This document shows positions 1,230 to 37,035 of a stretch of 43,024 nt of DNA, in pieces. The stretch covers positions 1-43,024 of the forward strand of contig CAZLUX010000004.1 of the NCBI GenBank assembly GCA_964562815.1, in the 5' to 3' direction. The number at the start of each line of letters is the position of its first letter. Position 1 is the first letter of the stretch. The DNA comes from an uncultured Enterobacteriaceae bacterium (GTDB taxonomy: Bacteria; Pseudomonadota; Gammaproteobacteria; Burkholderiales; SG8-39). A model generated the notes under the pieces. The model did not search any database. It was given only the letters and a program-made list of their open reading frames with translations, and was not told where the DNA came from. The translations under genes were made by a program, and so were the position numbers.

Positions 1230-1269
1230 CGCGGTATTCTAAGGCCATCCGGCATTCGAGGAGGCGGCG

Positions 1270-8011: not shown

Positions 8012-8641
8012 TCAGCGGCCGCCGAACAGCATCATCGTGGCGCCGATCGCCGGAACCAGCGCGCCGAGCGCAATCAGAGTCCCCGCGATGCGGGGATAGG
8101 CGCGCACCACGTTGTCGATCGTCAGATCCATCGCGTCGGCCTTTCTCGCCAGCCGGCGGGCCGAAATCCAGCGGTTGGCGCGGGCGGCCAGCGGCTCCAG
8201 CATTTGCGGGAAGAACGCGAGCACGACGCCGATCGCGAGCGCGATGGCGTTCGCTGCGATCAGCGCCCAGCGAATGCTGTTGGCGAACCACAGCAGCGGC
8301 GCCATCGAGCCGCTGGTCGTCAGCACCGCGGTAAGATCCGCTGCGCCGACCCGCAGAAGCAGGAAGTACAGTGAAAACAAGGCACCGATGAGGACCGCGA
8401 CACCAAGCCCCCGTGGGTGCCGGCGTGCGCCTTGCTCGACGTCGTGCGGGATCTCGAGCGGCCTCAGTGCAGGCCGGATCGAGGTCCACTGATTCAGCCG
8501 GTCGAGCAAGCGCAGCGCCGATTCGTTGCGCGCGATCAACGCCAGTCCGAGGAGCACGCCGACGACGCCGACGATGAGAACGAAGACGAGAACCGACGGA
8601 ACCACCACATGAGCGACGAAATAATTGTTCCAGAACCGCAT
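8012..8641 (-). CDS. Hypothetical integral membrane protein
   Basis: The ORF runs 8012..8719. I prefer the internal ATG at 8639-8641 because it is preceded by GAGGGAG. The product (MRFWNNYFVAHVVVPSVLVFVLIVGVVGVLLGLALIA...) has several hydrophobic helices. I recognise no family. Confidence 0.6.
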   Translation of the reverse strand: MRFWNNYFVAHVVVPSVLVFVLIVGVVGVLLGLALIARNESALRLLDRLNQWTSIRPALRPLEIPHDVEQGARRHPRGLGVAVLIGALFSLYFLLLRVGAADLTAVLTTSGSMAPLLWFANSIRWALIAANAIALAIGVVLAFFPQMLEPLAARANRWISARRLARKADAMDLTIDNVVRAYPRIAGTLIALGALVPAIGATMMLFGGR

Positions 8642-8700
8642 GTCTCCCTCGCCCTTTGCCGGATGAAGCGGGTTGCGATCGATTCTAGCCCTTTCCGACC

Positions 8701-10377
8701 ATGACGACGACCGGCTCACATCTTCTGACGCGCGCTTTGCGGCAGGAAGGGGTCGACACGATCTTCACGCTCGCGGGAGACCACATCCTGCCGTTGCTCG
8801 ATCTGCTGGCCGACGAGGGCTTCCGGCTGATCGACTGCCGCCACGAGCAGGCGGCGGTGCACATGGCCGACGCCTGGGGGCGGATCACGGGGCGGCTCGG
8901 GGTGTGCGCCTTCACGACGCCGGGCCACGCCAACGCGATTCCCGGGCTGGTCAATGCCCTCGCCGCCGAGAGCCCGGTGCTCAACATCGCGGGCTCCTCC
9001 GACCTGCGCAACTATCACCGCGGCATCATGCAGGAGATCGATCAGGTGGGTCTCGCGCGCCCGGCGACCAAAGGCGCGTGGCTGGTGCACGACGCGCGGC
9101 GCATCCCGGACATGGTGGCGACCGCGGTTCGCACCGCCTTCGAGGGGCGGCGGGGGCCGGTGCACCTGACGGTTCCCGTCGACGTACAGACTCAGCGTGT
9201 CGAGGAAGCCGAAGTCGGGTTCTTCGATGCGACCGCCTATCGGCCGCAGGCTCCGCGCCCGGCCGCGGACGCGCAGATCGGCGCGGCGCTGCAGCTCCTG
9301 CGCGCGGCCAAGCGGCCGCTGATCGTCGCCGGCACGCCGGCGGCCTACGGCGACTGGGGGGATTCGCTGGCGCGGCTGATCGAAATCACCAGGCTGCCGA
9401 TGATGACCGAGGAGGCCGCGCGCGGCATCGTTGCCGACGACCATCCGTACTGCTTCGGCTTCTTCGACCTGTCGCAGCACCAGCCGGCGAACCTGGTCCG
9501 GGAAGCCGACGTGGTGCTCTTGCTGGGCAAGCTGCTCGATTTCACCGTCGGCTTCGGCCTGCCGCCGATCGTGGCGCAGAACGCGAAGCTGATCCAGGTC
9601 GACCCGGCCGCCGTGCAGGTCGGGCGCAACCGGGGCGTCGAGGTCGGCATCGTCGGCGACATCGGGCCGGTGGTGGATCAGCTCGCCGCCGCGGCGGCGT
9701 CGATGCCGTGGCGTGAGCTGCCGTGGCTCGAGCGCCTGCGCGAGGTGCGCGTGGCCGAGCGCGCGCGCATCGAGGCATTCGCGACCGAAGAGGCGCCGCT
9801 GCGCTCGATGTTCGTGCACAAGACGCTCGCCGCGACGCTGCGCCCGGACGACGTGCTGGTCTTCGACGGCGGCGACTTTGCCTACTACGCGCGCGCCTAC
9901 CTGCCGGCCCTGCGGCCGCGTTCCTGGTATTACCTTCCCAGCCTGGGCATGCTGGGCCAGGCGGTGCCGACCGCGATTGCGGCCAAGCTCGCGCGCCCCG
10001 GCAGCCGCGTCTTCTGCATCACGGGCGACGGCTCGTTCGGCTTCAACGGCATGGAGCTCGACACCGCGGTGCGGCACGGCCTGGACATCGTGGTGCTGCT
10101 GGGCAACGACGCGGCCTGGGGCATCGACAAGAACATCCAGATCGGGCTGTACGGCAAGCCTGTCATCACCGACCTCGCGCCGTCGCGCTACGACCGGGTC
10201 GCAGAGGGCCTCGGTGCCCACGGCGAGCTGGTCGAGCGCCCGGAGCAGCTCGCCCCGGCGCTCGAGCGCGCCCTGGCGGCGGGGCGTCCGGCGCTGCTCA
10301 ACATCCAGGTGCAGAGCCAGATCAGCATGCGCGCGCAGGGCATCGTCGACAGCCGCAGGAAGGGCGGGGCGTTCTGA
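8701..10377 (+). CDS. Thiamine pyrophosphate-binding protein (acetolactate synthase / benzoylformate decarboxylase superfamily)
   Basis: 558 aa. N-terminal TPP_enzyme_N-like TGSHLLTRALRQEGVDTIFTLAGDHILPL. C-terminal TPP-Mg motif GDGSFGFNGMELDTAVRHGLDIVVLLGNDAAWG. Confidence 0.9.
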   Translation: MTTTGSHLLTRALRQEGVDTIFTLAGDHILPLLDLLADEGFRLIDCRHEQAAVHMADAWGRITGRLGVCAFTTPGHANAIPGLVNALAAESPVLNIAGSSDLRNYHRGIMQEIDQVGLARPATKGAWLVHDARRIPDMVATAVRTAFEGRRGPVHLTVPVDVQTQRVEEAEVGFFDATAYRPQAPRPAADAQIGAALQLLRAAKRPLIVAGTPAAYGDWGDSLARLIEITRLPMMTEEAARGIVADDHPYCFGFFDLSQHQPANLVREADVVLLLGKLLDFTVGFGLPPIVAQNAKLIQVDPAAVQVGRNRGVEVGIVGDIGPVVDQLAAAAASMPWRELPWLERLREVRVAERARIEAFATEEAPLRSMFVHKTLAATLRPDDVLVFDGGDFAYYARAYLPALRPRSWYYLPSLGMLGQAVPTAIAAKLARPGSRVFCITGDGSFGFNGMELDTAVRHGLDIVVLLGNDAAWGIDKNIQIGLYGKPVITDLAPSRYDRVAEGLGAHGELVERPEQLAPALERALAAGRPALLNIQVQSQISMRAQGIVDSRRKGGAF

Positions 10378-10378
10378 G

Positions 10379-11440
10379 ATGACCGGCCGGATCATCGTTT
10401 ACGGCATCGGCGCCATCGGCGGCCAGGCCGCCGCAAGGCTGCACAGTGCGGGCCACGACGTCGTCGCCGTCGAGCCCTGGGTCGCGCAGCGCGAGGCGGT
10501 GGCGCGCGAGGGGTTGCGTATCGCCAATCTCGACGGCAGCGTGGAGCGGCACTACCCGCCGGTCGTTGCGCCGGAGGAACTGCGCGGACAGGCGGAGCTG
10601 TGCCTGCTCGCGGTGAAGTCCTACGATACCGAGGCGGCGCTCGAGCACGTGCTGCCGAACTTGGCCGCAGATGCGCCGATCGTGAGCCTGCAGAACTCGA
10701 TCAACGAAGAGTGGATCGCTCCGCGCGCGGGGGCGCAGCGCGTCCTGGGCGGCGTGGTGCTGGTCAACGCGGTGTTGCTCGAGCCCGGGCTGGTGACGGC
10801 GACGGCCTCGGTCAGCCGCGCCACGGCGGGCGTGCGCCTGCCGGGGCTCTACGTCGGCGAGTATCTGCGCCCGCCCGGTGAGCAGGCGCGGCGGATCGCC
10901 GCGCTGATGGACGCGGTGTGGCCCTCCGAGGTGATCGAAGACCTGATGCACGAGCGCTGGACCAAGCTGCTCACCAACACCGCGCTCAACCCGGTCTCCG
11001 GCATCGCCGGCCTGCGCTCCGCGGCGATGCTCGCCGACACCGCGGCGCGCCGCGCGATCGTGCACATCGCGGCCGAGGTGCTGCAGGCCGCGACCGCCGA
11101 AGGCCATCCCTTCGAGCGCGTGATGGGCGACTTCAGCGCGGCCGAGGTGCTCGAGGGCGCCGCGGATCGCTCGGACGCGTTCGAGCGCGGGCTCGCCGAG
11201 CGCGCCTCGCGCGTCAGCGCCGACGCGGCGACTTCGCTCTACCAGGACGTCCTGCGCGGGCGCCGCACCGAGGTCGACTATTTCAGCGGCCTGGTGGCGG
11301 CGAAGGCCCGCGCGCACGGCCTCGCCGCGCCCTGGTGCGAGGCGGCCACCTCGCTGGTGCACGAGGTCGAGCAGGGGCGGCGCCGCCCCGACCCGTCGAA
11401 TCTCGACGAGCTCGCGCGGCGCGCGCTCAGCGCCGCCTAG
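10379..11440 (+). CDS. Ketopantoate reductase family protein (PanE/ApbA-like 2-dehydropantoate 2-reductase)
   Basis: ATG at 10379 lies 1 nt after the TPP-enzyme stop and is in frame with track ORF 9713..11440. N-terminus MTGRIIVYGIGAIGG (Rossmann fold) and C-terminal SLYQDVLRGRRTEVDYFSG motif typical of ApbA_C. Confidence 0.85.
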   Translation: MTGRIIVYGIGAIGGQAAARLHSAGHDVVAVEPWVAQREAVAREGLRIANLDGSVERHYPPVVAPEELRGQAELCLLAVKSYDTEAALEHVLPNLAADAPIVSLQNSINEEWIAPRAGAQRVLGGVVLVNAVLLEPGLVTATASVSRATAGVRLPGLYVGEYLRPPGEQARRIAALMDAVWPSEVIEDLMHERWTKLLTNTALNPVSGIAGLRSAAMLADTAARRAIVHIAAEVLQAATAEGHPFERVMGDFSAAEVLEGAADRSDAFERGLAERASRVSADAATSLYQDVLRGRRTEVDYFSGLVAAKARAHGLAAPWCEAATSLVHEVEQGRRRPDPSNLDELARRALSAA

Positions 11441-12623
11441 AAGCGGGCACGGACTCCGTCTCGGTGCGCGGATCCAGCTGCAGCAGCGCCTGCGACGAAT
11501 CCGCCATCGGCACGTAGCCGTAAGGCTCGCCCACCGGCCGCCGCGTCACCAGCTTGTAGCGATACAGCGCGTAGGCCCCCGCCGCGCAAAGCACCAGCGC
11601 GAAATACACGAGCAGGCTCCCCGGCCCCAGTGTCTGCATGAGAAAGCCGGCGGCCGAGGGCCCGATCACGGCGCCGATGCCGTGCAGCAGGAGTAGCGTT
11701 CCGGTCGCTTCCAGGACGCGCGCCGGCTCGAGCAGGTCGTTGACGTGCGCGACGCTGATGCCGTACACGGTGAACGCTAGGCCGCCGTAGAAGAACGCGA
11801 CCGTCAGGAGCAACGGCCCGGAGAAGCGCTCGGCGAAGAACGCCAGCGCGGCGAGCAGAGCGGCGCTGGCGCAGACCGCGGCGAGCACGAGGCGCCGGTC
11901 GCGGCGATCCGAGAGCTGGCCGATCGGCCACTGCAGCAGCGCCCCGCCGATGATCGTCGCGCTCATGAACGCCGCGACGCCGGCTTCGTCCATGCCGACC
12001 CGCTGGGCGAACACGGCGCCCATGCCGAAGAACGCGCCGTTAAGCAGCCCCGAGGCGAGCGCGCCGACGAAGCCGACCGGCGCGACCGCGAACAGGCGGC
12101 GCAAGGCGGGCCGCGGCGCGGCGACGGGCGGCGGCTCGCGCACGCGAGTGAGCGCGACCGGCACCAGGGCGAGCGAGAGCAGAATCGAGACCAGCGCGAA
12201 GGGCGTAAAGCCGACCACGTCTCCGATCAGGATCAGGTACTGGCCCAAGGCCAGGGCGCCGAGGGTGGTCGCCATGTACGCGGCGAAAATCTTGCCGCGC
12301 CCCGAGTTGGGTGCGAGCTGGTTGAGCCAGCTCTCGATCACCATGTACAAGCCGACCACGCAGGCGCCGGTGAGCAGTCGCAGCGCGCCCCAGGCCCAGG
12401 GCGTGAGCACCAGCGCGTGCAGGATCGGCATCGTCGAGGCCACCGAAGCCATCGCGGCGAAGGCGCGGATGTGCCCCGCGCGGCGGATGATCGCCGGGCA
12501 GACGTAGGTGCCGAGAATGAATCCGGCGAAGTAGGCCGACATCACCAGTCCGGTGACCGTCACCGGATACCCCATCAGTCCGGCGCGCAGGCCGAGCGCG
12601 GTGAATAGCAGGCCGATCCCCAC
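11427..12623 (-). CDS. MFS transporter (true N-terminus probably about 16 codons further upstream; see findings)
   Basis: 398 aa of multi-helix hydrophobic sequence with an MFS-like loop (IIRRAGHIRAF). The frame stays open upstream of the GTG at 12623 and encodes LLRPVLSLFTGIAILV with no canonical start codon. Confidence 0.85.
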   Translation of the reverse strand: MGIGLLFTALGLRAGLMGYPVTVTGLVMSAYFAGFILGTYVCPAIIRRAGHIRAFAAMASVASTMPILHALVLTPWAWGALRLLTGACVVGLYMVIESWLNQLAPNSGRGKIFAAYMATTLGALALGQYLILIGDVVGFTPFALVSILLSLALVPVALTRVREPPPVAAPRPALRRLFAVAPVGFVGALASGLLNGAFFGMGAVFAQRVGMDEAGVAAFMSATIIGGALLQWPIGQLSDRRDRRLVLAAVCASAALLAALAFFAERFSGPLLLTVAFFYGGLAFTVYGISVAHVNDLLEPARVLEATGTLLLLHGIGAVIGPSAAGFLMQTLGPGSLLVYFALVLCAAGAYALYRYKLVTRRPVGEPYGYVPMADSSQALLQLDPRTETESVPASRRR

Positions 12624-12690
12624 GACGAGGATCGCGATGCCGGTGAACAGCGAAAGGACGGGTCTTAGCAGGGCGCCCCGCGCGACAGCA

Positions 12691-13422
12691 CTAGATGCCG
12701 AGATAGTACTGCTTGATCATGTCGTTGCTTTCGAGCGCGAGCGCGCTCTCGCCCTCGAACTCGATCTGGCCGTGGACGATGATGTAGCCGCGGTCGGCCA
12801 TCCGGATCGCCTGGTTGAAGTTCTGCTCGGCCATCAGCACGGTGAGATTGCGCAGCTCCTTGAGTTCCTTGATCTTGCTGATCATCTGGTGCACGAGCAG
12901 TGGTGATAGCCCGACCGACGGTTCGTCCACCAGCAGCAGGTGAGGCTCGGACATCAGGGCGCGTGCGATGGCGACCATCTGCTGCTCGCCCCCGCTCATG
13001 CTGCCCGCGGTCTGCCCGCGACGCTGCTTGAGGCGGGGGAAGACCTCGTAGGCGAATTCGAGATTGTGCGCGAGCTTCGTCCGGGCGCCCCGGCGGTAGG
13101 CGCCGAGGATCAGGTTCTCCTCCACCGTCAGCGTCGGAAACAGGCGGCGTCCCTCCGGCACCAGCGCGATGCCGAGCTCGACCACCTGCTGCGGGCTCCT
13201 GCCGACCAGGTCGATGCGCTCGCCGTCGCGCTCGAGGTAGATCGCGCCGGCGGTGGGCCGCACGATACCCATGATGCACTTGATGAGCGTGCTCTTGCCG
13301 TTGCCGTTCGAGCCGAGCAGGACCACGCCCTCGCCTTCCTCGACGCGGATCGACAGTCCGTGCAGCACCCTTACCGCCCCGTAACCGGCCTCGATCCCTT
13401 CCGCGACGAGCCTATTCGCCAA
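12691..13422 (-). CDS. livF: Branched-chain amino acid-type ABC transporter ATP-binding protein (LivF-like)
   Basis: 243 aa with a TTG start. Walker A GSNGNGKST, signature SGGEQQMVAIARAL, Walker B LLLVDEPSVGL. It is the last gene of a five-gene Liv-type operon. Confidence 0.9.
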   Translation of the reverse strand: MANRLVAEGIEAGYGAVRVLHGLSIRVEEGEGVVLLGSNGNGKSTLIKCIMGIVRPTAGAIYLERDGERIDLVGRSPQQVVELGIALVPEGRRLFPTLTVEENLILGAYRRGARTKLAHNLEFAYEVFPRLKQRRGQTAGSMSGGEQQMVAIARALMSEPHLLLVDEPSVGLSPLLVHQMISKIKELKELRNLTVLMAEQNFNQAIRMADRGYIIVHGQIEFEGESALALESNDMIKQYYLGI

Positions 13423-14137
13423 GGTAGGCCCTCTCGACGTGGGGGTTGCGCACGATCTCGGCGGGCACGCCTTCGGCGATCTTCTGCCCCGCGTCGAGCA
13501 CCACGATGCGCTCGGAAAACCGCATCACGGCGCGCATGATGTGCTCGATCATGATGACCGCGACGCCGCGCTTGTTCAGCGCCAGCAGGATCTCGAGGAT
13601 CTCGTCGACCTCCGAGCTGGACAGGCCGGCCATCGCCTCGTCCGACACCAGCAGCCTCGGTTTGGCGGCGAGCGCGCGCGCGAGCTCGAGCTTGCGCATG
13701 TCGACCTGGGTCAGCCCGGCGGAATTTTCGTGCGCGCGCCCCTTGAGGCCGATCTGCTCGAGCACGTCCATGGCCTCGTCCGTGACGCGCCGATGCTCGG
13801 CGCGCGACCAGGCTGCATATTCCAGCGGCACGCGCAGGTTCTCCAGCACCGACATGCTGCGGAACGGCTTGGGAATCTGAAAGCTGCGCGCGACGCCAAG
13901 CCGCGCACGCTGGTGCGGCGCCATTCGCGTGATGTCGCGCCCTTCGAAAGTGATCGTGCCCTCGTCGTTGAGTAGCGCGCCCGAGATGCAGTTGATGAGC
14001 GTCGTCTTGCCCGAGCCGTTCGGGCCGATCAGGCCGAGCCGCTCGCCGGCGTTCACGTGCACGTCGACCTTCTGCAGTGCGACGAAGCCGCCGAAACGCT
14101 TGGTGACGCCCCTGACGTCGAGGACCGGGCCGCTCAT
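13412..14137 (-). CDS. livG: Branched-chain amino acid-type ABC transporter ATP-binding protein (LivG-like)
   Basis: The internal ATG at 14135-14137 (MSGPVLDVRGVTKRFGG) forms an ATGA overlap with the livM-like stop. Walker A GPNGSGKTT; Walker B LLVSDEAMAGL. The longer 360-aa track ORF has an Arg-rich, non-protein-like N-terminus. Confidence 0.9.
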   Translation of the reverse strand: MSGPVLDVRGVTKRFGGFVALQKVDVHVNAGERLGLIGPNGSGKTTLINCISGALLNDEGTITFEGRDITRMAPHQRARLGVARSFQIPKPFRSMSVLENLRVPLEYAAWSRAEHRRVTDEAMDVLEQIGLKGRAHENSAGLTQVDMRKLELARALAAKPRLLVSDEAMAGLSSSEVDEILEILLALNKRGVAVIMIEHIMRAVMRFSERIVVLDAGQKIAEGVPAEIVRNPHVERAYLGE

Positions 14138-27482: not shown

Positions 27483-29012
27483 TTGATTCGAATCTCCACC
27501 CGACGCTGGCTCGCAATCGCGCTCGTCGCTACGCTGGCGTTCCGCTTCTGGCTCTCGGCGGTCCTTCCCATGACCGGCGACGAAGCCTACTTCGTGCTGT
27601 GGGGCCGTCATCCGGACCTGGGCTTCTACGACCACCCGCCGATGGTCGGCTGGCTGCTCGCGCTGATCCTGCACTGGTCCGACACCGAGTGGGCGTTGCG
27701 CCTGCCGGTGACCCTGCTGCCGCCGGCGCTTGCGCTCGTGCTGCGCGCTGCGCTGCGCGGCTGGTTCGGCCGCGACGAGGACACCGCCAACCTGGCTGCG
27801 CTGTGCGTGCTGCTGGTGCCGCTGAACTTCATCAATGTCCTGATCACGACGGACACGCCGCTGATCTTTTTCTCGACGCTGTCGGTGCTGTTCTTCGCGC
27901 GCGCGGCGCAGCGCGGCTCGGCCGGCGTTTTTCTCGCTTCGGGCGTGTTCCTGGGGCTCGCATTCCTGTCCAAATATTTCGCCGTGCTTCTCGGCCTGGG
28001 CTACTTCGCCTGGGCGCTGGCCTCGCCCGGCGCGAGGCGCCGCTGGACGGGGCCGCTGCTCGTCTTCGTCGGTGCGCTGCCATTCGCGCTCGAGAACCTG
28101 TACTGGAACTACGAGGCCTGCTGGTGCAACCTGATGTTCAACGCGGTCAACCGGCAGTCGGACGCCGCCTGGTCGCTGTTGACGCCGGCGCTCTACCTTC
28201 TCTCGCTTGCCTACCTCGCGGCGCCGCTGCTGTTCTGGGCGTGGAAAGAGCGCGCGCAGCTGCGCGCGAGCGCGGCGTCGCCGGAGGCTCGCGCGCTGCT
28301 GCTGGCCTGGGCCGTTCCGTTCGCGGTATTCGCGCTGGTGTCGCTGCGCAAGGAAATCGGCCTGCACTGGATGCTTTCGTTCATGCCGGCGCTGATCGCG
28401 AGCCTGGCGCTGCTGCCGGGGCGCAGGCCGCTTGCCTCGAGCGCGCGCTTTTTTGCGTGGTTCGTCGCCCTGCACGCGCTCGCGATCGTGACCATCGCGA
28501 ATCTGCCGATGCAGACATGGAAGGGCTGGACGCGCATGTATCCGCGCATCGTCGCGTTCGTGGACACGCGCGGCGTGCTGAAGAGAGTCGAACCGTACTT
28601 CGGGCGCTACCGGCTCGCCGCGAGCAGCTACGCGGCCGCGGCCAGCTACGAGTACTACGCGGGCCGGCGGGTGATCGTGTTCGGCCCCGGCTCGTCGCAC
28701 GCGCGCCACGACGACATCCTGACCGACTTTCGCAAGCTCGACGGGGCCGACATCCTGGTGCTGCGGCCCTCGCCGCCGCCCGAGGGAGAATACCGGCCGT
28801 ACTTCCGCAGCATGCGGGTGCAAACGTTCGAGGTCCGGGGCGTCACGTTCTACGCGGTGCTCGGCCAGGGCTTCGACTATCGCGCCTACCACGACCGCGT
28901 CCTGACGTTCGTGCGCGATCACTACTACCGCCGGCCGTGGTGGCTGCCGCCGGGCCGCTGCTACTTCTGCGAGCGCTACTTCGGCAGCGGCGACTGCGGC
29001 TGGAGGCACTGA
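27483..29012 (+). CDS. Glycosyltransferase family 39 (GT-C fold, PMT_2 / ArnT-like) membrane protein
   Basis: 509 aa with a TTG start. N-terminal loop motif TGDEAYFVLWGRHPDLGFYDHPPMVGWLL is the catalytic DE-containing first periplasmic loop of ArnT/PMT-type enzymes. About 10 helices are followed by a soluble C-terminal domain of roughly 140 aa. Confidence 0.85.
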   Translation: MIRISTRRWLAIALVATLAFRFWLSAVLPMTGDEAYFVLWGRHPDLGFYDHPPMVGWLLALILHWSDTEWALRLPVTLLPPALALVLRAALRGWFGRDEDTANLAALCVLLVPLNFINVLITTDTPLIFFSTLSVLFFARAAQRGSAGVFLASGVFLGLAFLSKYFAVLLGLGYFAWALASPGARRRWTGPLLVFVGALPFALENLYWNYEACWCNLMFNAVNRQSDAAWSLLTPALYLLSLAYLAAPLLFWAWKERAQLRASAASPEARALLLAWAVPFAVFALVSLRKEIGLHWMLSFMPALIASLALLPGRRPLASSARFFAWFVALHALAIVTIANLPMQTWKGWTRMYPRIVAFVDTRGVLKRVEPYFGRYRLAASSYAAAASYEYYAGRRVIVFGPGSSHARHDDILTDFRKLDGADILVLRPSPPPEGEYRPYFRSMRVQTFEVRGVTFYAVLGQGFDYRAYHDRVLTFVRDHYYRRPWWLPPGRCYFCERYFGSGDCGWRH

Positions 29013-29884
29013 TGCTGCGCGCACGCGAGCTGGTGCGCCTGTTGCGCCCGCATCAGTGGGTCAAGAACGGCTTCGTTCTGGCCGGCCTCGTTTTCGGGCA
29101 CGGCTGGGACGACCCGCACATGGTGGTGCTTGCGCTGTCGGCGTTCCTCGCCTTCTGTCTGGCGTCGAGCGCCGTGTACGCGTTCAACGACGCCATCGAC
29201 GCGGAGCAGGACCGCGGCCACCCCGAGAAGCGTACCCGCCCCGTGGCGAAGGGCGCGGTGAGCATCGCGGAGGCCCTCACGCTCGCCGTGCTGCTCGCGC
29301 TGGGCGGGCTCGGGATCGGCGCGCTCGTATCGCTGGGGGTCGCTGCGTCGGTCGCCGGCTATCTGGTGCTCAACGCCGCCTACACGCTCGGCCTCAAGCA
29401 CGTGCCGGTGATCGACGTGCTCGCGCTCGCCGCGGGCTTCATGCTGCGGCTGCTCGCCGGGACGGCGGGGATCGGAATCGTGCCTTCGAACTGGATTCTC
29501 GCCTGCGGCGTGCTGCTGACCTTGTTCCTGGGTTTTGCCAAGCGCCGCGCCGAGCTCGACCGGCTGGCGGACGACGCGCATCAGCATCGCGCGGTGCTGG
29601 CGGCCTACAGCCCCCGGTTTCTGGACATTGCGATAACCGTGTGCGCGGCCGGAATGATCGTCGCTTACGTGTTCTACACGCTCGCGCCGGAAACGGCCGA
29701 GCTGCACGGCACGAACCGGCTCGTGCTGACGGTGCCGTGGGTGCTGCTCGGCACGCTGCGTTATCTCTTTCGCCTGCGCTTCCGCGGCGGCGGCGGCGAC
29801 CCGTCGTCCGAGCTGCTTCGAGACCCCGCGCTGACGGCGGCGGTCGTGGGATGGCTCGCCACCGTGCTGTGGCTCATCTCCTGA
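29012..29884 (+). CDS. UbiA-family prenyltransferase, decaprenyl-phosphate phosphoribosyltransferase-like (DPPR synthase type)
   Basis: ATG at 29012 forms a TGATG junction with the GT39 stop. LRPHQWVKNGFVLAGLVF and the Asp-rich motif YAFNDAIDAEQDRGHPEKRTRPVA closely resemble Rv3806c-type 5-phosphoribosyl-1-pyrophosphate:polyprenyl-phosphate transferases. 290 aa, polytopic. Confidence 0.85.
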   Translation: MLRARELVRLLRPHQWVKNGFVLAGLVFGHGWDDPHMVVLALSAFLAFCLASSAVYAFNDAIDAEQDRGHPEKRTRPVAKGAVSIAEALTLAVLLALGGLGIGALVSLGVAASVAGYLVLNAAYTLGLKHVPVIDVLALAAGFMLRLLAGTAGIGIVPSNWILACGVLLTLFLGFAKRRAELDRLADDAHQHRAVLAAYSPRFLDIAITVCAAGMIVAYVFYTLAPETAELHGTNRLVLTVPWVLLGTLRYLFRLRFRGGGGDPSSELLRDPALTAAVVGWLATVLWLIS

Positions 29885-30545: not shown

Positions 30546-31511
30546 ATGCACGCGACCCTGCCCCTGATGCGGCATTACGGGTTCCCGCCGGTCCGGCGCG
30601 GCCGCCTCGAGACGCTCCAGGTCAACCTCGGCTACCGCTGCAACCAGAGCTGCCTGCACTGCCACGTCAACGCCGGCCCGAACCGCAGCGAGCAGATGTC
30701 CGCGGAAACCGTCACCGACGTGCTCGCGTTCATGGAGGTGGCCGGAATCAAGAAACTCGACCTCACCGGCGGCGCGCCCGAGCTCAATCCGCGTTTCCGA
30801 GACCTGGTCCGGCGCGCGCGGGCGCTGGGGGTCCATGTGATGGACCGCTGCAACCTGACGATTCTCGAGGAGCCGGGCCAGGAGGACCTGGGCGAGTTCC
30901 TCGCCCGCGAGGGCGTCGAGGTGATCGCGTCGCTGCCCTGCTATCAGGAGGACAACGTCGACCGGCAGCGAGGCAGCGGCGTGTTCGGGCGCAGCCTGCG
31001 CGCGCTCGCGCGCCTGAACGCGCTCGGCTACGGCAAGGGTGTCCCGGGCCTCGAGCTGAGCCTGGTGTACAACCCGCAGGGTGCGGTACTGCCGCCATCG
31101 CAGGCGCAACTCGAGGCGGACTACAAGCGCGAGCTGGGCGAGCGCTACGGGATCGCATTCGACCGGCTGTACGTGCTCGCCAACATGCCGATTCAGCGCT
31201 TCGGCTCGATGCTGGTCTCGAAGGGGCAATTCAACGAGTACATGCGGCTGCTGCACGGCGCCCACAGAAGCGAGAACGTCGAATCGGTGATGTGCCGCAG
31301 CCTGATCTCGGTCGACTGGCGCGGCTACGTTTACGACTGCGATTTCAATCAGATGCTCGAGCTGCCGCTCGAGATGGAAGGCACGCAACGGCCGCAGCTT
31401 TCGGATCTGATCGGACGGGATCTTGTCGGCAACCCGATCGCGGTCCGCGACCATTGCTACGGCTGCACCGCCGGCCAGGGCTCCTCCTGCGGCGGCGCGC
31501 TGCATGACTGA
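30546..31511 (+). CDS. arsS: Radical SAM / Cys-rich-domain protein of the ArsS family (rSAM/selenodomain family; annotated in databases as arsenosugar biosynthesis radical SAM protein)
   Basis: 321 aa. Radical SAM cluster motif GYRCNQSCLHCH. C-terminal Cys-rich tail HCYGCTAGQGSSCGG. Genomic context includes the four partner families usually found with it. Confidence 0.88.
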   Translation: MHATLPLMRHYGFPPVRRGRLETLQVNLGYRCNQSCLHCHVNAGPNRSEQMSAETVTDVLAFMEVAGIKKLDLTGGAPELNPRFRDLVRRARALGVHVMDRCNLTILEEPGQEDLGEFLAREGVEVIASLPCYQEDNVDRQRGSGVFGRSLRALARLNALGYGKGVPGLELSLVYNPQGAVLPPSQAQLEADYKRELGERYGIAFDRLYVLANMPIQRFGSMLVSKGQFNEYMRLLHGAHRSENVESVMCRSLISVDWRGYVYDCDFNQMLELPLEMEGTQRPQLSDLIGRDLVGNPIAVRDHCYGCTAGQGSSCGGALHD

Positions 31512-32448
31512 GCAGCGGCCGGGGCGCGCCTGTCCGGCCGGCTATCGCTACGGCGCGCGGGCGCTGGCGGCGCCGGCCGCGCTTCGGGTCGATACGCTCT
31601 GGGTCGCGGGCGGGCTCTACGGCAACGGCCTGGCGCTCGAGCGGCTGCTCGAGCTCTTCGAAGGCGAGCCCGGGTCCAAGGCCCTGGTGTTCAACGGCGA
31701 CTTCCACTGGTTCGACGTCGACCCGCAGCGCTTCGCCGAAGTGAACCGCCGCGTCCTCGGGCACGCCGCCACCCGCGGCAACGTGGAAACCGAGCTGGCT
31801 GACCCGGCGGCGGGAGCCGGCTGCGGCTGCGGCTATCCGGATTGGGTCGACGATGCGGACGTGGAACGATCCAACCGCATCATCGAGCGCCTGCGCGAGA
31901 CCGCCCGGCGCCTGCCGCAAGCCGTCGCGGCGCTCGCGAAATTGCCGATGCATCGGGTCGCGCAGGTCGGCGATGAGCGCATCGGCGTCGTACACGGCGA
32001 CGCGGAGTCGCTCGCCGGCTGGGGTTTCTCGCAGGAGGTGCTCGCCAGCGCGGCCGGCGCGCGGGCCGCGCACGAGGCCTGCGTGCGCGCCGGCGTTCGC
32101 GTGTTCGCCTCCAGCCACAGCTGCCTGCCGGTGCTGCAGCGCCTGGATGCCGGTTGCGTGATCATCAACAACGGCGCGGCCGGGATGCCGAATTTCGCGG
32201 GAACGCGTTTCGGCCTGGCGACCCGGATCTCGGTCAGGCCCGGCAGGCAGCCGTTGTACGGGGCGCGCGCGGGCGGGCTGTGGGTCGAGGCCGCGGCGCT
32301 CGAGTACGACTTCGCGGCCTGGGAGCGGGAGTTCGTCGCGCAGTGGCCGCCGGGGAGCGACGCCCACCGTTCGTATTACCAGCGCATCGTGCGGGGGCCG
32401 CGCTACGCCCGCGAGCAGGCGCTGCGCGTCGCCGAGGCGGTGGCATGA
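31504..32448 (+). CDS. Metallophosphoesterase-like protein, rSAM/selenodomain-associated type (TIGR04168-like)
   Basis: ATG at 31504 overlaps the arsS-like stop by 8 nt. Degenerate calcineurin-like motifs: WVAGGLYGN, VFNGDFHWFD, TRGNVE, VVHGDAES, ASSHSC. The family assignment is from memory of the conserved neighbourhood. Confidence 0.65.
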   Translation: MTEQRPGRACPAGYRYGARALAAPAALRVDTLWVAGGLYGNGLALERLLELFEGEPGSKALVFNGDFHWFDVDPQRFAEVNRRVLGHAATRGNVETELADPAAGAGCGCGYPDWVDDADVERSNRIIERLRETARRLPQAVAALAKLPMHRVAQVGDERIGVVHGDAESLAGWGFSQEVLASAAGARAAHEACVRAGVRVFASSHSCLPVLQRLDAGCVIINNGAAGMPNFAGTRFGLATRISVRPGRQPLYGARAGGLWVEAAALEYDFAAWEREFVAQWPPGSDAHRSYYQRIVRGPRYAREQALRVAEAVA

Positions 32449-34598
32449 GCAGGTCGCGGCTCGCGCTCCTCGTGGTGATCGTGCTTCTGGTGGCGGCTTT
32501 CTTCGCCGCCGGCGGCCAGCGCTACCTCAGCTTCGAGACCATCAAGTCGGAGCAGGAAGCGATCCTCGGCTACTACGCCTCGCACCCGTGGCAGACCGCC
32601 CTCGGCTTCTTCGTCGCCTATGTGGCCGTCACCGGTCTCTCGCTCCCCGGCGCGGCGCTCATGACGCTGGTCGCGGGGGCGATCTTCGGCCTGCTGTGGG
32701 GCACCGTGATCGTGTCGTTCGCCTCGACGATCGGGGCGACGCTTGCCTTCCTTGCCAGCCGCTTCCTCTTGCGCGACTGGGTCCAGCGGCGCTTCGGCCA
32801 CGCGCTGCGCGCGGTGAACGAGGGCGTCGCGCGCGAGGGCGCGTTCTACCTGTTCACCCTGCGGCTGATCCCGGCGGTGCCTTTCTTCGTGATCAACCTC
32901 GCGCTGGGCCTGACGCCGATCCGCACCGCCACCTTCTACTGGGTGAGTCAGCTCGGCATGCTCGCCGGGACGATCGTGTACGTGAACGCCGGCACCCGGC
33001 TGGCGGCGATCGAGTCGCCTGCGGGGATCCTCTCTCCTGGCCTGCTGGGCGCCTTCGTCCTGCTCGGGCTGTTTCCGCTGCTGGCGAAGAAGGCGCTCGA
33101 CGCGGTCAAGGCGCGTCGTGTCTATGCAAGATGGAAGCGCCCGCGGCGCTTCGACCGCAACCTGGTGGTGATCGGCGCCGGCTCGGCCGGACTGGTCAGC
33201 GCGTACATCGCGGCCGCGGTCCGCGCCAAAGTGACGCTGATCGAGAAGCACCGCATGGGCGGCGACTGCCTCAACACGGGCTGCGTGCCGTCCAAGGCGC
33301 TGATCAGGACGGCGCGGGTGCTGGCCGAGATCCGGCGCGCCCCGGAATACGGCCTGAAGTCCGCCCACGCCGAGTTCGACTTCGCCGAGGTGATGGAGCG
33401 CGTGCAGCGCGTCGTGCGCGCGGTCGAGCCGCACGACTCCGCCGAGCGCTACACCGCGCTCGGCGTCGAATGTCTGCATGGGGAGGCGAAGATCGTCTCC
33501 CCCTGGGAAGTGGAGGTCGCGCTCGAGGGCGGCGAGACGCGGCGCCTGTCCACCCGCGCCATCGTGATCGCCGCCGGGGCGCGCCCTTTCGTGCCGCCGA
33601 TTCCGGGCATCGAGCAGGTCGGCTGCCTCACCTCCGACACGGTCTGGGCGCTGCGCGAGCTGCCGCGGCGGCTGGTGGTGCTGGGAGGCGGGCCGATCGG
33701 CTGCGAGCTCGCGCAGTGCTTCGCCCGCTTCGGCGCGAAGGTGACGCAGGTCGAGATGCTGCCGCGACTCATGGTGCGCGAAGACCCCGAGATCTCCGCG
33801 ATGGTGATGCAGAAATTCCGCGACGAGGGGATCGAGGTGCTGGTCGGGCACAAGGCCAAGGCCTTCCGGGTCGAGAACGGGGAAAAGGTTTTGATCGCCG
33901 AGCACGACGGAGCCGAAGCGCGCATCGCTTTCGACGCGCTGCTGTGCGCGGTGGGGCGCGTGGCGAACACCGAGGGCTACGGGCTCGAGGCGCTCGGCAT
34001 TCCGGTCACGCGCCAGCGCACGGTCGAGACCAACGAGTTCCTGCAGACGGCCTTCCCGAACATCTACGCCTGCGGCGACGTCGCCGGGCCCTACCAGTTT
34101 ACGCACGTCGCCGCGCACCAGGCCTGGTACGCTGCCGTGAACGCGCTGTTCGGAGGCTTGCGCAGGTTCCGGGCGGACTATTCGGTGATTCCGTGGGCGA
34201 CCTTCACCGACCCCGAGGTGGCGCGCGTCGGCCTGAACGAAAACGAGGCCAAAGAACGCGGCGTGCCGTACGAGGTCTCGACCTACGGCATCGACGACCT
34301 CGACCGCGCGATCGCGGACGAAGAGGCGCATGGCGTGGTCAAGGTGCTCACCGTGCCGGGCAAGGACCGCATCCTCGGCGTGACGATCGTCGGCGCGCAC
34401 GCGGGCGAGCTGATTGCCGAGTTCGTCGCCGCGATGCGCCACGGCCTGGGGTTGAACAAGATTCTCGGCACGATCCATGTCTACCCGACGCTCGCCGAGG
34501 CGAACAAGTACGCCGCCGGCGTCTGGAAGAAGGCGCATGCGCCGCAGGGCGCGCTGCGCGCGATCGAGCGGTTCCACGGATGGATGCGCGGCGGATGA
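32445..34598 (+). CDS. Fusion protein: N-terminal DedA / TVP38-TMEM64 (SNARE-associated) membrane domain plus C-terminal FAD-dependent pyridine nucleotide-disulfide oxidoreductase (mercuric reductase / dihydrolipoamide dehydrogenase-like)
   Basis: ATG at 32445 forms an ATGA overlap with the upstream stop; 717 aa. Membrane half: LPGAALMTLVAGAIFG...FYLFTLRLIPAVPFFVINLALG. Flavoprotein half: VVIGAGSAGLVSAY, redox-active GGDCLNTGCVPSKAL, second Rossmann fold VVLGGGPIGCELAQ, and the dimerisation region HVYPTLAEA. Confidence 0.9.
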   Translation: MSRSRLALLVVIVLLVAAFFAAGGQRYLSFETIKSEQEAILGYYASHPWQTALGFFVAYVAVTGLSLPGAALMTLVAGAIFGLLWGTVIVSFASTIGATLAFLASRFLLRDWVQRRFGHALRAVNEGVAREGAFYLFTLRLIPAVPFFVINLALGLTPIRTATFYWVSQLGMLAGTIVYVNAGTRLAAIESPAGILSPGLLGAFVLLGLFPLLAKKALDAVKARRVYARWKRPRRFDRNLVVIGAGSAGLVSAYIAAAVRAKVTLIEKHRMGGDCLNTGCVPSKALIRTARVLAEIRRAPEYGLKSAHAEFDFAEVMERVQRVVRAVEPHDSAERYTALGVECLHGEAKIVSPWEVEVALEGGETRRLSTRAIVIAAGARPFVPPIPGIEQVGCLTSDTVWALRELPRRLVVLGGGPIGCELAQCFARFGAKVTQVEMLPRLMVREDPEISAMVMQKFRDEGIEVLVGHKAKAFRVENGEKVLIAEHDGAEARIAFDALLCAVGRVANTEGYGLEALGIPVTRQRTVETNEFLQTAFPNIYACGDVAGPYQFTHVAAHQAWYAAVNALFGGLRRFRADYSVIPWATFTDPEVARVGLNENEAKERGVPYEVSTYGIDDLDRAIADEEAHGVVKVLTVPGKDRILGVTIVGAHAGELIAEFVAAMRHGLGLNKILGTIHVYPTLAEANKYAAGVWKKAHAPQGALRAIERFHGWMRGG

Positions 34599-35374
34599 GG
34601 CTTGCGGCCGCCACTTTCGTGCTGATCGTGACGGCCGTGCCCGGAGCGGCGCAGGGTTTTGACCCGTCGCACGCGGCGTGGACCGCGTTGCTCGGGCGGC
34701 ACGTGGTGGTGCTCGATGGCGGAAAAGCCTCGCGCGTTCGCTATTCCGGGTTCGCCCGGGACCGCGTTGCGCTCGATGCCTATCTCGGCGCGCTGGCGGC
34801 CGTGACGCGCCCGCAGTTCGAGCGCTGGCCGCGGGCCGAGCAGATGGCCTTCCTGATCAACACCTACAACGCACGCATGGTGCAGAAGGTGCTGACCCGC
34901 TATCCCGACCTGCGCTCGGTGTGGGATTTCGGGAGGTTTTTCGGCAATCCCTTCAAGGACGATTTCTTCACCCTGCTTGGGCGCAAAGCCTCGCTCGACG
35001 ACGTCGAGGGAATGCTGCGCGAGCCCGGCGCCTACGACGATCCGCGCGTGCACTTCGCGCTCAACTGTGCCTCGGTGGGATGCCCGATGCTCAGACGGCA
35101 GGCCTATGTCGGCGCGAAGCTCGACTCCCAGCTCGAGGATCAGGCGCGCCGCTTCCTGACCGATCGCAGCCGCAACCGCTACGATGCGGTGTCAGGGCGG
35201 CTCGAGGTCTCCAGGATCTTCGACTGGTACGAGAGGGACTGGCCGCCACGTTATCTCGAGCGCCACGCCGCGCAGCTTGCCGACGACGCCGCGGCGCGCG
35301 CACGAATCGCGGCGGGTGGGTTCGAGCTTGCCTATCTCGACTACGATTGGACACTGAACGACGCGAAGGAGTAG
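34595..35374 (+). CDS. DUF547 domain-containing protein, exported
   Basis: ATG at 34595 forms an ATGA overlap. Signal peptide MRLAAATFVLIVTAVPGAAQG. AFLINTYNARMVQKVL, DPRVHFALNCASVGCP and FDWYERDW are the DUF547 hallmark motifs. Confidence 0.8.
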   Translation: MRLAAATFVLIVTAVPGAAQGFDPSHAAWTALLGRHVVVLDGGKASRVRYSGFARDRVALDAYLGALAAVTRPQFERWPRAEQMAFLINTYNARMVQKVLTRYPDLRSVWDFGRFFGNPFKDDFFTLLGRKASLDDVEGMLREPGAYDDPRVHFALNCASVGCPMLRRQAYVGAKLDSQLEDQARRFLTDRSRNRYDAVSGRLEVSRIFDWYERDWPPRYLERHAAQLADDAAARARIAAGGFELAYLDYDWTLNDAKE

Positions 35375-35388
35375 CACCGCGGATCACC

Positions 35389-36045
35389 GTGGTGATCCCG
35401 GCGCTGAACGAGGCCGCAGGCATCGTGCGCGCGCTGCAGGCGCTCGCGCCGCTGCGCCGCCGCGGGCACGAGGTGATCGTGGTCGACGGCGGCAGCGAAG
35501 ACGCCACCGCGGACCTCGCGCGGCCGTTCGCCGACCAGGTGCTGACGGCGTCGCGCGGGCGCGCGCTGCAGATGAACGCCGGCGCACGCGCCGCACGCGG
35601 CACGTCCTTGCTCTTTCTGCACGCGGACGTGCGCCTGCCCGAGGGCGCGGATCGCATGGTGGCGAACGCGCTCGGCGAGCGGTGCTGGGGCCGTTTCGAC
35701 GTCGCGCTCGACAGCCCGCGCGCAGTGCTCGCGCTCATCGGCGCGATGATGAACCTGCGCTCGAGGCTCACGGGCATCGCCACCGGCGACCAGGCGCTGT
35801 TCGTGCGCCGGGACGTGTTCGAGTCGGCGGGCGGCTATGCGGAAATTCCGCTGATGGAGGACATCGAGCTCTCGGCCCGGCTGCGCCGCTTCGGGCGCCC
35901 CGCCTGCCTGCGGGCGCGCGTGCGGGTGTCCGCGCGCCGCTGGCAGGCGCGCGGCGCGCTGCGCACGGTTGTGCTCATGTGGCGCCTGCGGCTGGCCTAT
36001 TTCCTCGGCGCCGACCCGGCGCGGCTGGCCGAGCGCTACCGCTGA
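35389..36045 (+). CDS. Family 2 glycosyltransferase, rSAM/selenodomain-associated transferase 2 type (TIGR04283-like)
   Basis: VVIPALNEAAGI...VIVVDGGSEDAT...LLFLHADVRLP is a GT-A/GT2 N-terminus. The start is uncertain: GTG at 35389 or TTG at 35347. Stop TGA at 36043-36045. Confidence 0.78.
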   Translation: MVIPALNEAAGIVRALQALAPLRRRGHEVIVVDGGSEDATADLARPFADQVLTASRGRALQMNAGARAARGTSLLFLHADVRLPEGADRMVANALGERCWGRFDVALDSPRAVLALIGAMMNLRSRLTGIATGDQALFVRRDVFESAGGYAEIPLMEDIELSARLRRFGRPACLRARVRVSARRWQARGALRTVVLMWRLRLAYFLGADPARLAERYR

Positions 36046-36716
36046 TGCGCGCCGGGGCGCTGGTGATCGTGTTCGCGCGCGCCCCACAGCCCGGGCGGGT
36101 GAAGACGCGCCTCGTGCCGCGCCTGGGCGAGTGGGGCGCGGCACAGCTGCACCGGCGCCTCGTAAGGCGCACGCTGCGCGTCGCCCGGGCGGCGCGCTGC
36201 GGGCCCGTCGAGCTGCACGGCACGCCGCGCGCGAGGCACGGGTTCTTCCTGCAGTGCGCGCAAGCCCACGGCGTCGCCCTGCGCGAGCAGCGCGGCCGCG
36301 ACCTGGGTGAGCGCATGTTCAATGCCATCGCCGGGGGCCTGCGCAGGCGGCGCGCGGTGATCCTGGTCGGCACGGATTGCCCGGCGCTGGAAGCGCGCGA
36401 CCTGCGCCGTGCCGCGCGCGCGCTGGCCGGCGGCTGCGACGCGGTCCTCGCTCCCGTCGAGGACGGGGGCTATGCGCTGATCGGCCTGCGGCGCGCGTCG
36501 CCGGGCCTGTTCGAGCGCATCGCCTGGGGCGGATCCGACGTGTTCGCGCGCAGCGCGGACGCGCTCGAGCGCCTGGGCTGGCGCTGGCGGCGGCTGCGCA
36601 CGCTATGGGACGTCGACCACCCGCAGGACCTGACGCGTCTGGGCGGGTGGAGCCAACGTCGCCGCTTTACTTGCGATCGGGAAACAGGCGCGAGGCGTGC
36701 CACATGTAGAAGCTGA
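36045..36716 (+). CDS. DUF2064 / CofC-like nucleotidyltransferase-fold protein, rSAM/selenodomain-associated transferase 1 type (TIGR04282-like)
   Basis: ATG at 36045 forms a TGATG junction with the GT2 stop. LVIVFARAPQPGRVKTRL, VILVGTDCP and PVEDGGYALIGL are the DUF2064 signature motifs. 223 aa. Confidence 0.8.
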   Translation: MRAGALVIVFARAPQPGRVKTRLVPRLGEWGAAQLHRRLVRRTLRVARAARCGPVELHGTPRARHGFFLQCAQAHGVALREQRGRDLGERMFNAIAGGLRRRRAVILVGTDCPALEARDLRRAARALAGGCDAVLAPVEDGGYALIGLRRASPGLFERIAWGGSDVFARSADALERLGWRWRRLRTLWDVDHPQDLTRLGGWSQRRRFTCDRETGARRATCRS

Positions 36717-37035
36717 CGGGCGCCGAGGCGGCGAGCCGCTCGCCGTCCGCGCCCACGAGGATCGCCTGCACGGTGTGACTGCCGCGATAGATGCCGTGAA
36801 GCTTGATCACGTCGCCGCGATGGATCTTCGGCCGCGCATTGCCGTCCAGCACGAGCCTGACTCCCGCGCCCGGCGGAGCGTCCACTCGATGCAGCTTGAC
36901 CGTGAGCTTGCCCTGGTTGCTGTGGATCGTCGTGTTGTTTGCCGGTGCGACGACCGAAATCTCCGCCGCCTGCGCGGCCGACGCGGCTGTCAGGATCAGC
37001 ATGGAGATTGCAGAAAGTATGACGCGTGATTTCAC
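36667..37035 (-). CDS. Hypothetical small exported protein
   Basis: 122 aa. Signal peptide MKSRVILSAISMLILTAASAAQA/AE followed by beta-rich sequence. Its 3' end overlaps the convergent DUF2064 gene by 50 nt. I do not recognise the family. Confidence 0.6.
   Translation of the reverse strand: MKSRVILSAISMLILTAASAAQAAEISVVAPANNTTIHSNQGKLTVKLHRVDAPPGAGVRLVLDGNARPKIHRGDVIKLHGIYRGSHTVQAILVGADGERLAASAPVSFYMWHASRLFPDRK

Follow-up and report, generated by a model that had tools for sequence, protein, structure and literature searches.

An arsM-less ArsS operon in an uncultured Burkholderiales-like betaproteobacterium as a probable member of an organoarsenical pathway

The window analysed here, the whole 43,024-nucleotide stretch of contig CAZLUX010000004.1 (GC content 69%), originates from an uncultured, Burkholderiales-like soil betaproteobacterium and contains an operon of six genes, here called g1 to g6, which is headed by a gene for the radical S-adenosylmethionine (SAM) enzyme ArsS. 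We consider it probable that this operon is an arsM-less member of an ArsS-centred organoarsenical pathway leading to an arsenosugar or an arsenosugar-lipid. All six genes lie on the + strand between positions 30546 and 36716 (Table 1), with boundaries read directly from the sequence. g1 and g2 overlap by 8 nt, the stop codon of g2 shares the ATGA at 32445-32448 with the start codon of g3, the ATGA at 34595-34598 is likewise common to g3 and g4, and a TGATG at 36043-47 joins g5 to g6. The sole non-overlapping junction is that between g4 and g5, where 14 nt separate the g4 stop at 35374 from the GTG at 35389; a TTG at 35347 is an alternative start for g5, the public gene calls taking the GTG. 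On three metagenome contigs that carry an identical ArsS, all six boundaries match these public calls. Stop/start overlaps of this kind are ordinary in operons of 69% GC and mean tight packing, nothing unusual.

Judged by its sequence, g1 is an ArsS at equivalog level, scoring 453.9 bits against TIGR04167 (cut-off 300) over model positions 2-303 of 303 and 185.9 bits against DUF3641. The radical SAM motif CX3CX2C is formed by C32, C36 and C39, and in the cysteine-rich C-terminal tail C304, C307 and C315 are invariant. The last of these, encoded by TGC at 31488-31490 within G312-S-S-C315, sits at the position of the GxxU selenocysteine motif tabulated for TIGR04167, a family whose members can be selenoproteins (PMC13188914). 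A sequence search of the PDB with ArsS returned generic radical SAM cores only. In vitro, ArsS adds a 5'-deoxyadenosyl radical to dimethylarsenite (DMAs(III)), which yields 5'-deoxy-5'-dimethylarsinoyl-adenosine (DDMAA), and for this adenosylation the Synechocystis enzyme is the only ArsS with known activity (PMC13598754). In Synechocystis, arsS is co-transcribed with arsM (bioRxiv 10.1101/2022.09.23.509062). With that enzyme g1 shares the equivalog family, the CX3CX2C motif and a DUF3641 tail rich in Cys, and the same 5'-deoxyadenosyl addition to DMAs(III) is by analogy presumed for g1. The two settings differ in that arsM adjoins arsS in Synechocystis, whereas the window has no arsM within 43 kb and its ArsS heads a six-gene unit with experimentally uncharacterised partners. 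The arsM-arsS pair of Synechocystis sp. PCC 6803 was reportedly described by Xue et al. in 2017 and 2019, and the in vitro work on ArsS reportedly by Cheng et al. in 2021.

In the product of g3, a membrane domain of the DedA/VTT type (residues ~1-225) is joined to a cytoplasmic reductase (residues ~235-717). The former scores 81.1 bits against VTT_dom (PF09335, gathering threshold 33.9, residues 72-184), the latter 216.9 bits against Pyr_redox_2, 83.4 bits against Pyr_redox and 105.6 bits against Pyr_redox_dim. The reductase displays the features of a group-1 flavoprotein disulfide reductase (FDR), i.e. FAD and NAD(P)H domains, a dimerisation domain and a CX4C redox pair; this pair (C-L-N-T-G-C) lies within the segment GGDCLNTGCVPSK, which is conserved in orthologues. 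The closest relative of the flavoprotein, both in structure and in sequence, is the mercuric reductase MerA. Its best PDB relatives are MerA cores (267 bits to 5X1Y), and a residue-level alignment places a Tyr at the position of the catalytic His of dihydrolipoamide dehydrogenase (LipDH), so that, as in MerA, the His of the His-Glu dyad is replaced; among 40 aligned sequences this Tyr is kept in almost all fusion orthologues. Unlike MerA, however, g3 is fused to a membrane domain, has neither the C-terminal Cys pair (the tail ...FHGWMRGG holds no Cys) nor an NmerA domain (the N-terminus is DedA), and stays below every equivalog cut-off, including that of MerA (TIGR02053, 387.4 compared to 454.45). 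g3 is not itself a MerA. The DedA part is free of cysteine and is therefore not a thiol relay. Fusions of a COG0398 DedA protein to an oxidoreductase are the commonest DedA fusions in bacteria, and their function is unknown (PMC10127716).

The second gene, g2, has no match among the NCBIfam models, even at E<=1, remains below the threshold of Pfam Metallophos_2 (19.7, threshold 27) and has no match in a PDB sequence search. Its AlphaFold2 model (predicted local distance difference test score, pLDDT, 86; predicted template modelling score, pTM, 0.89) adopts a metallophosphoesterase (calcineurin-like) fold. Foldseek retrieved 141 PDB matches at E<=0.001, which are metallophosphoesterases throughout among the matches listed; the best is the SapH Ap4A hydrolase (SapH/Spr1479, PDB 3QFM) with E 4e-11, and the template modelling (TM) scores are 0.58-0.73. 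With these enzymes g2 shares the overall fold as well as motifs II (GD), IV (H164) and V (H205), all three retained in the g2 family. It differs from them by altered metal-site motifs and by additional invariant cysteines: across 80 diverged family members DxH of motif I is changed to GGLYGN, GNHE to GNVE and GxH to NNG, leaving motif VI without its His, while C10, C107-G-C109 and C207 are 88-100% conserved. These changes in sequence point to a half-lost dinuclear metal site and a new thiol site, and on the predicted model g2 is best described as a cysteine-rich, degenerate metallophosphoesterase. An exhaustive search of representatives with the g2 family gave about 1000 clusters at 50% identity. 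Fusion proteins of other organisms join a g2-like part to ArsS (P0449, P0454) or DUF2064 to a g2-like part (P0366).

Of the three remaining products, that of g4 belongs to DUF547 (PF04784, 81.7 bits, gathering threshold 27) and carries a signal-peptide-like N-terminus and the motif N-C158-A-S-x-G-C163-P, in which C158 and C163 are invariant in 31 homologues. Its confident AlphaFold2 model (pLDDT 82) found nothing better than E 1.1 in a fold search against the PDB, and the PDB sequence matches are at chance level; hence no function can be derived from the g4 structure. For g5 the family-2 glycosyltransferase (GT2) model TIGR04283 gives 271.8 bits (cut-off 182) and Pfam Glycos_transf_2 54.3 bits, with weaker matches to MftF and to glucosyl-3-phosphoglycerate synthase. 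g6 scores 194.7 bits against TIGR04282 (cut-off 134) and 100.6 bits against DUF2064, and it also matches F420_cofC (E 7e-8), NTP_transf_3 (24.2 bits) and the PDB entry 3CGX, a 'putative nucleotide-diphospho-sugar transferase' (E 2e-18). TIGR04167, TIGR04283 and TIGR04282 are all named 'arsenosugar biosynthesis' by NCBI.

An earlier note on this DNA had proposed six genes on one strand with overlapping or abutting stop/start codons, and the overlaps that it lists agree with the direct reading and with the independent public gene calls. The sequence likewise confirms its all-Cys tail of the radical SAM protein with TGC as the last Cys codon, the VTT_dom and Pyr_redox_2/Pyr_redox_dim scores its DedA-reductase fusion, the PF04784 score its DUF547 assignment, and the three passed TIGRFAM cut-offs its ArsS and two transferases. 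As to the 'phosphoesterase' of that note, the fold is upheld by AlphaFold2 and Foldseek, but a curated NCBIfam/TIGRFAM family does not stand behind the name and Metallophos_2 is sub-threshold.

Table 1. Genes of the ArsS operon and adjoining upstream genes in the window.
Feature	Position	Strand	Basis
g1 ArsS, radical SAM 5'-deoxyadenosyl transferase, DUF3641 Cys-rich C-terminus	30546..31511	+	TIGR04167, DUF3641
g2 cysteine-rich non-canonical metallophosphoesterase-fold protein (predicted), 314 aa	31504..32448	+	AlphaFold2, Foldseek
g3 DedA/VTT + MerA-like flavoprotein disulfide reductase fusion	32445..34598	+	VTT_dom, Pyr_redox_2, Pyr_redox_dim
g4 DUF547 protein, signal-peptide-like N-terminus, invariant CX4C	34595..35374	+	PF04784
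g5 family-2 glycosyltransferase	35389..36045 (or from TTG 35347)	+	TIGR04283
g6 DUF2064 / CofC-MobA-like nucleotidyltransferase-fold protein	36045..36716	+	TIGR04282
Cyclic nucleotide (cNMP)-binding protein, 186 aa	29906..30466	+	Pfam cNMP_binding; NCBIfam CRP/FtrB-like matches weak
UbiA-family decaprenyl-phosphate phosphoribosyltransferase	29012-29884	+	NF008977, 254 bits > 234; pair with PMT_2 gene adjoins cNMP gene upstream
GT-C PMT_2 glycosyltransferase	27483-29012	+ (same strand as cNMP gene)	Pfam/NCBIfam

A scan of a genome collection with the ArsS alignment yielded 80 loci, nearly all of them from Beta-, Gamma- and Alphaproteobacteria, the closest ArsS (84% identical) being that of an uncultured betaproteobacterium. 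Neighbouring genes were found by local tblastn and by unbiased clustering of open reading frames (ORFs), the recurrent ones were scanned with family models, and neighbours were counted in the 42 loci, window included, that have at least 7 kb on both sides. Among these, GT2 occurs in 30, DedA-FDR in 28, DUF2064 in 28, a g2-like gene in 15 and DUF547 in 11; DUF3047 (11), the TIGR03169 oxidoreductase (9), an ArsM-like methyltransferase (8), an extracytoplasmic function (ECF) sigma factor (7), an SSF-type symporter (6) and methylthioadenosine (MTA) phosphorylase (4) recur as well. At least one accessory gene of the window is present in 41/42 loci. The other five families of the operon are thus recurrent ArsS partners across Alpha-, Beta- and Gammaproteobacteria. 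Their order is shuffled between lineages, an argument for a functional and against a merely inherited linkage. ArsM-like neighbours were found in 15/78 related loci, and they carry the canonical cysteines that bind As, among them those of SNCVLNL and GC(I)SGA. There ArsM sits among the same accessory genes, e.g. in the order ArsS-ArsM-DedAFDR-GT2-DUF2064 in locus L010, and the ArsM-linked loci are dispersed across the neighbour-joining tree of ArsS and also occur in the clade that is sister to that of the window.

A second scan, of metagenomes and with the g2 alignment, returned 80 loci, 38 of which share the architecture of the window: cNMP-ArsS-g2-DedAFDR-(DUF547)-GT2-DUF2064-(DUF3047). Such an arrangement is thus frequent among Burkholderiales-like bacteria from the environment. 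The cNMP-binding gene precedes g1 by a gap of 79 nt and lies directly upstream of ArsS in L004, L005, L006, L008 and most of the 38 ArsS-containing metagenome loci; in this clade it is conserved as the gene that opens the cluster, and it probably encodes a regulator or a ligand sensor.

The same genes occur in cultured organisms. Of the 54 plasmids or chromids found to carry ArsS, 49 come from Burkholderia. Plasmids of B. thailandensis and B. glumae carry the operon hypothetical-MTA phosphorylase (MTAP)-TIGR04283-TIGR04282-FAD oxidoreductase, near which lie ECF sigma/zf-HC2 and CcdA/thioredoxin genes, followed by ArsS, a gene annotated as 'hypothetical' whose product is a g2 homologue with 50% identity, NlpC/P60, another radical SAM gene and DUF547; B. 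glumae has in addition a 'bifunctional TVP38/TMEM64 family protein/FAD-dependent oxidoreductase'. In Cupriavidus sp. KK10 a same-strand run begins with a PiT/sulfate-permease-like gene, ArsM, an AhpD/YciW-like gene, ArsS, FDR and DedA and continues with GT2, DUF2064, MTAP (TIGR01694, 276 bits > 274.85), a second radical SAM gene and DUF547. It thereby unites 5/6 window families (all except the phosphoesterase-like one) with ArsM and MTAP, FDR and DedA being separate genes in reversed order relative to g3. In the cyanobacterium Pseudanabaena galeata, two TVP38/DedA genes and a 'mercuric reductase' are interspersed with arsS and with an arsM annotated as 'arsenosugar biosynthesis arsenite methyltransferase ArsM' (arsR ... 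DedA, 'mercuric reductase', arsM, DedA, arsS); the ArsR gene is nearby, and the 'mercuric reductase' is 41% identical to g3 with the same H-x-Y-P-T motif. Since reductase and DedA adjoin arsM/arsS in both Cupriavidus and Pseudanabaena, we regard them as part of the arsenic system. Taken together, in other genomes the partners of the window's ArsS are interleaved with a bona fide ArsM and with an MTA-phosphorylase paralogue.

Compared to these loci of the NCBIfam 'arsenosugar biosynthesis' neighbourhood (B. glumae/thailandensis, Cupriavidus sp. KK10 and Pseudanabaena galeata), the window shares TIGR04167, TIGR04282 and TIGR04283, and DedA with a MerA-like reductase, DUF547 and a g2-like protein are partners there, too. 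The differences are that those loci add some of ArsM, MTA phosphorylase, AhpD-like, second radical SAM, ECF sigma/anti-sigma and CcdA/thioredoxin genes, whereas in the window DedA is fused to the reductase, the cluster starts with a cNMP-binding gene, and arsM and MTAP are absent.

In the pathway that we propose, dimethylarsenite would be supplied by an unlinked ArsM or be derived from environmental dimethylarsenate. The DedA-coupled, MerA-like NAD(P)H reductase g3 would keep it trivalent or regenerate the trivalent form; trivalent methylarsenicals oxidise non-enzymatically in air (PMC7229686). ArsS would then add the 5'-deoxyadenosyl radical to give DDMAA, from which an MTA phosphorylase, presumably a housekeeping enzyme here and a dedicated one in other loci, could release adenine and arsenoribose 1-phosphate. 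The CofC/MobA fold of g6 would suit conversion of the latter into a nucleotide sugar, and g5 may transfer the activated arsenosugar to glycerol(-phosphate), a lipid or a comparable acceptor. g2 might either hand a thiol-bound As(III) species to ArsS or trim a phosphate or nucleotide intermediate; a role as As(III) chaperone would be in keeping with the g2 fusions and the invariant cysteines (3-4). DedA and the exported CX4C protein of DUF547 would serve the membrane and periplasmic side, in uptake or export of the arsenical.

Several observations weigh against this proposal. The steps of the five accessory proteins, which are experimentally uncharacterised, are inferred; a literature search that combined arsenic with DUF547, DUF2064 or the TIGR numbers turned up no functional study, in line with the statement of the earlier note that five of the six genes lack experimental characterisation. 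Pfam/NCBIfam scans and precomputed annotations of the 43 kb window, which spans -30 kb/+6 kb of ArsS, showed no arsM, arsR, arsC or efflux genes, and tblastn of the window with sequences of ArsM, MTAP and further recurrent partners taken from related loci gave no match, so the absence of ars genes from the window, also put forward in that note, holds. ArsM is nearby in zero of the 38 ArsS-containing metagenome loci, and DedA-FDR does not qualify as a substitute for it, being present in 63% of ArsM+ loci and 68% of ArsM- loci; we rejected this idea on account of these alike frequencies. A scan for sigma-70 promoters and intrinsic terminators between 29000 and 37600 gave no excess over chance. 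In 35/80 metagenome loci a g2 homologue (60-67% identity) occurs with no ArsS in the DNA available per locus, so that the g2 family is not restricted to an ArsS context. Finally, the 3' side of ArsS clusters repeatedly holds a TIGR03169 'N-terminal-to-SelD' pyridine nucleotide-disulfide oxidoreductase. From the missing arsM and the seemingly extra reductase and DUF547 genes, the earlier note had concluded that the substrate is open (arsenic, selenium or another one). This doubt is weakened by ArsM lying amid the same genes in 15/78 loci and in Cupriavidus and Pseudanabaena.

Given these points, other readings have to be weighed. That chemistry like that of ArsS, aided by thiol-rich partners, acts on a selenium nucleophile to form seleno-adenosyl or selenosugar compounds appears very unlikely to us. 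The selenoproteins within TIGR04167 (PMC13188914), the window's lack of ars genes, the TIGR03169 'Nterm_to_SelD' oxidoreductase in 9/42 ArsS loci and a DedA protein tied to selenite resistance, according to a reference cited in PMC10127716, would suit such a pathway. Yet the interleaved gene is ArsM and not SelD, neither selD nor selA is among the recurrent ArsS neighbours, g1 reaches the ArsS equivalog level, the activity of ArsS on DMAs(III) is established in vitro (PMC13598754), and a selenocysteine as catalytic residue is uninformative on the substrate. The TIGR03169 gene, exemplified by L077:7404-8525 (337 bits > 310) and seen in 9 other ArsS loci, is the sole selenium hint among the neighbours.

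It is also unlikely, in our view, that only ArsS is related to arsenic and that the other five genes are independent envelope or redox neighbours kept by synteny, in which case GT2 and the nucleotidyltransferase would serve a glycoconjugate, DedA-FDR membrane homeostasis, and g2 and DUF547 thiol or metal stress. The ArsS-less g2 loci, situated near AhpD-like and ECF sigma genes, speak for such independence, as do the general prevalence of DedA(COG0398)-oxidoreductase fusions (PMC10127716) and the wide distribution of DUF547, plants included. To these can be added locus L158, where cNMP, g2, DedA-FDR, GT2, DUF2064 and DUF3047 follow one another (8390-13505) with no room for ArsS between cNMP and g2, so that an accessory set with no ArsS beside it is possible. 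Mere inherited synteny, on the other hand, is difficult to reconcile with families that recur in shuffled order around ArsS in three proteobacterial classes and a cyanobacterium, with an accessory gene in 41/42 loci, with the fusions that tie g2 to ArsS and DUF2064, and with the overlapping junctions of the operon. Within the organoarsenical pathway that we favour, a special case would be scavenging or detoxification, in which a clade without ArsM turns dimethylarsenate from other soil microbes into non-toxic arsenosugars with g3 as the reductase. The absence of arsM near ArsS in the window and in the 38 metagenome loci, the MerA-like active-site features of g3 and the air oxidation of trivalent methylarsenicals (PMC7229686), which makes a reductase chemically necessary, are consistent with it. 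However, DedA-FDR is as frequent in ArsM-bearing loci, the absence of ArsM is known from gene neighbourhoods, and the activity of g3 on dimethylarsenate is putative, so that we hold this special case to be rather improbable.

Some further observations concern genes around ArsS and g2 in related loci. In L019, L031, L046, L058, L059, L070 and L083, from Pseudomonas-like hosts and some Burkholderiales, ArsS is separated from g2 by a gene of the SSF family (sodium:solute symporter-like, 465 aa), at ~+1.0 kb relative to the start of ArsS, and DUF3047 often ends the cluster; both genes are absent from the window. The second radical SAM gene of Cupriavidus and Burkholderia precedes DUF547 and overlaps it (L165:15413-17708; L167:15117-17314; L164:13122-15319). 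It is absent from the window as well, and it matches TrsS and the tetraether lipid synthase Tes best, though below threshold, which hints at lipid chemistry, perhaps that of arsenolipids. In the ArsS-less g2 loci (L089, L098 at 744-2453, L115, L118, L153 and about 30 other metagenome loci) an AhpD-like/CMD 'peroxidase-related' gene is found immediately upstream of the g2 homologue, ECF sigma and DUF3379 anti-sigma genes are located upstream, and an MNIO bufferin maturase (BufB) is nearby; the AhpD/ECF sigma context suggests a second, stress-related setting of the g2 family.

Elsewhere in the window, genes for hydantoinase/acetone-carboxylase-like proteins, a Liv-type ABC transporter, AlaRS, DAHP synthase, TauE, a GDSL lipase, RidA, a response regulator, a HAD protein, an ECF sigma/RskA pair and XseA were identified, together with the GT-C PMT_2 and decaprenyl-phosphate phosphoribosyltransferase pair of Table 1. 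This pair was considered as pathway genes because arsenosugars are ribofuranosides. It was rejected for now, being an optional insert between aroG/TauE and cNMP that is present in about a dozen relative loci with diverged sequences, missing in many others and without a counterpart in distant ArsS loci. On the - strand, an ORF of 122 aa (36667-37035) whose N-terminus resembles a signal peptide runs towards g6 and shares 50 nt with the 3' end of that gene; it has no family match and is kept only in the closest relatives (L001, L085, L086, L090). In L001 (ENA contig_90371) alaS and the g3 orthologue are broken into short gene calls (464-3080 and 12151-14053), probably by assembly frameshifts and not for biological reasons, the window copies being intact. 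An Rfam scan of the whole window gave zero matches.

In conclusion, the locus is an arsM-less newcomer to a catalogued but biochemically unexplored neighbourhood and no new kind of system; its novelty is lower than the earlier note had assumed, because NCBI already names such clusters 'arsenosugar biosynthesis' in genomes of cultured Burkholderia and others. Its value lies instead in a pathway hypothesis and in candidate enzymes, including a candidate methylarsenate reductase. To our knowledge, no enzymes have been assigned to the arsenosugar steps after ArsS, i.e. adenine removal, sugar activation and glycoside formation. The candidate set for these would comprise an MTA phosphorylase, then a CofC-like nucleotidyltransferase and then a GT2 enzyme, accompanied by a MerA-like reductase and a Cys-rich phosphoesterase-like protein. 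The proposal is open to direct testing, as the same genes are present in cultured, tractable strains of Burkholderia glumae, B. thailandensis and Cupriavidus. The operon also bears on the question of arsenosugar production by non-photosynthetic soil bacteria. A bolder version, to which we assign a low probability, holds that g3 might be the long-sought reductase of dimethylarsenate and methylarsenate, coupled to uptake, and g2 a pseudo-phosphoesterase that binds As(III) through thiols and supplies ArsS. If this were true, arsM-less soil Burkholderiales would scavenge the dimethylarsenate of their neighbours and turn it into arsenosugars or arsenolipids, which would amount to a community-level arsenic pathway in heterotrophs.

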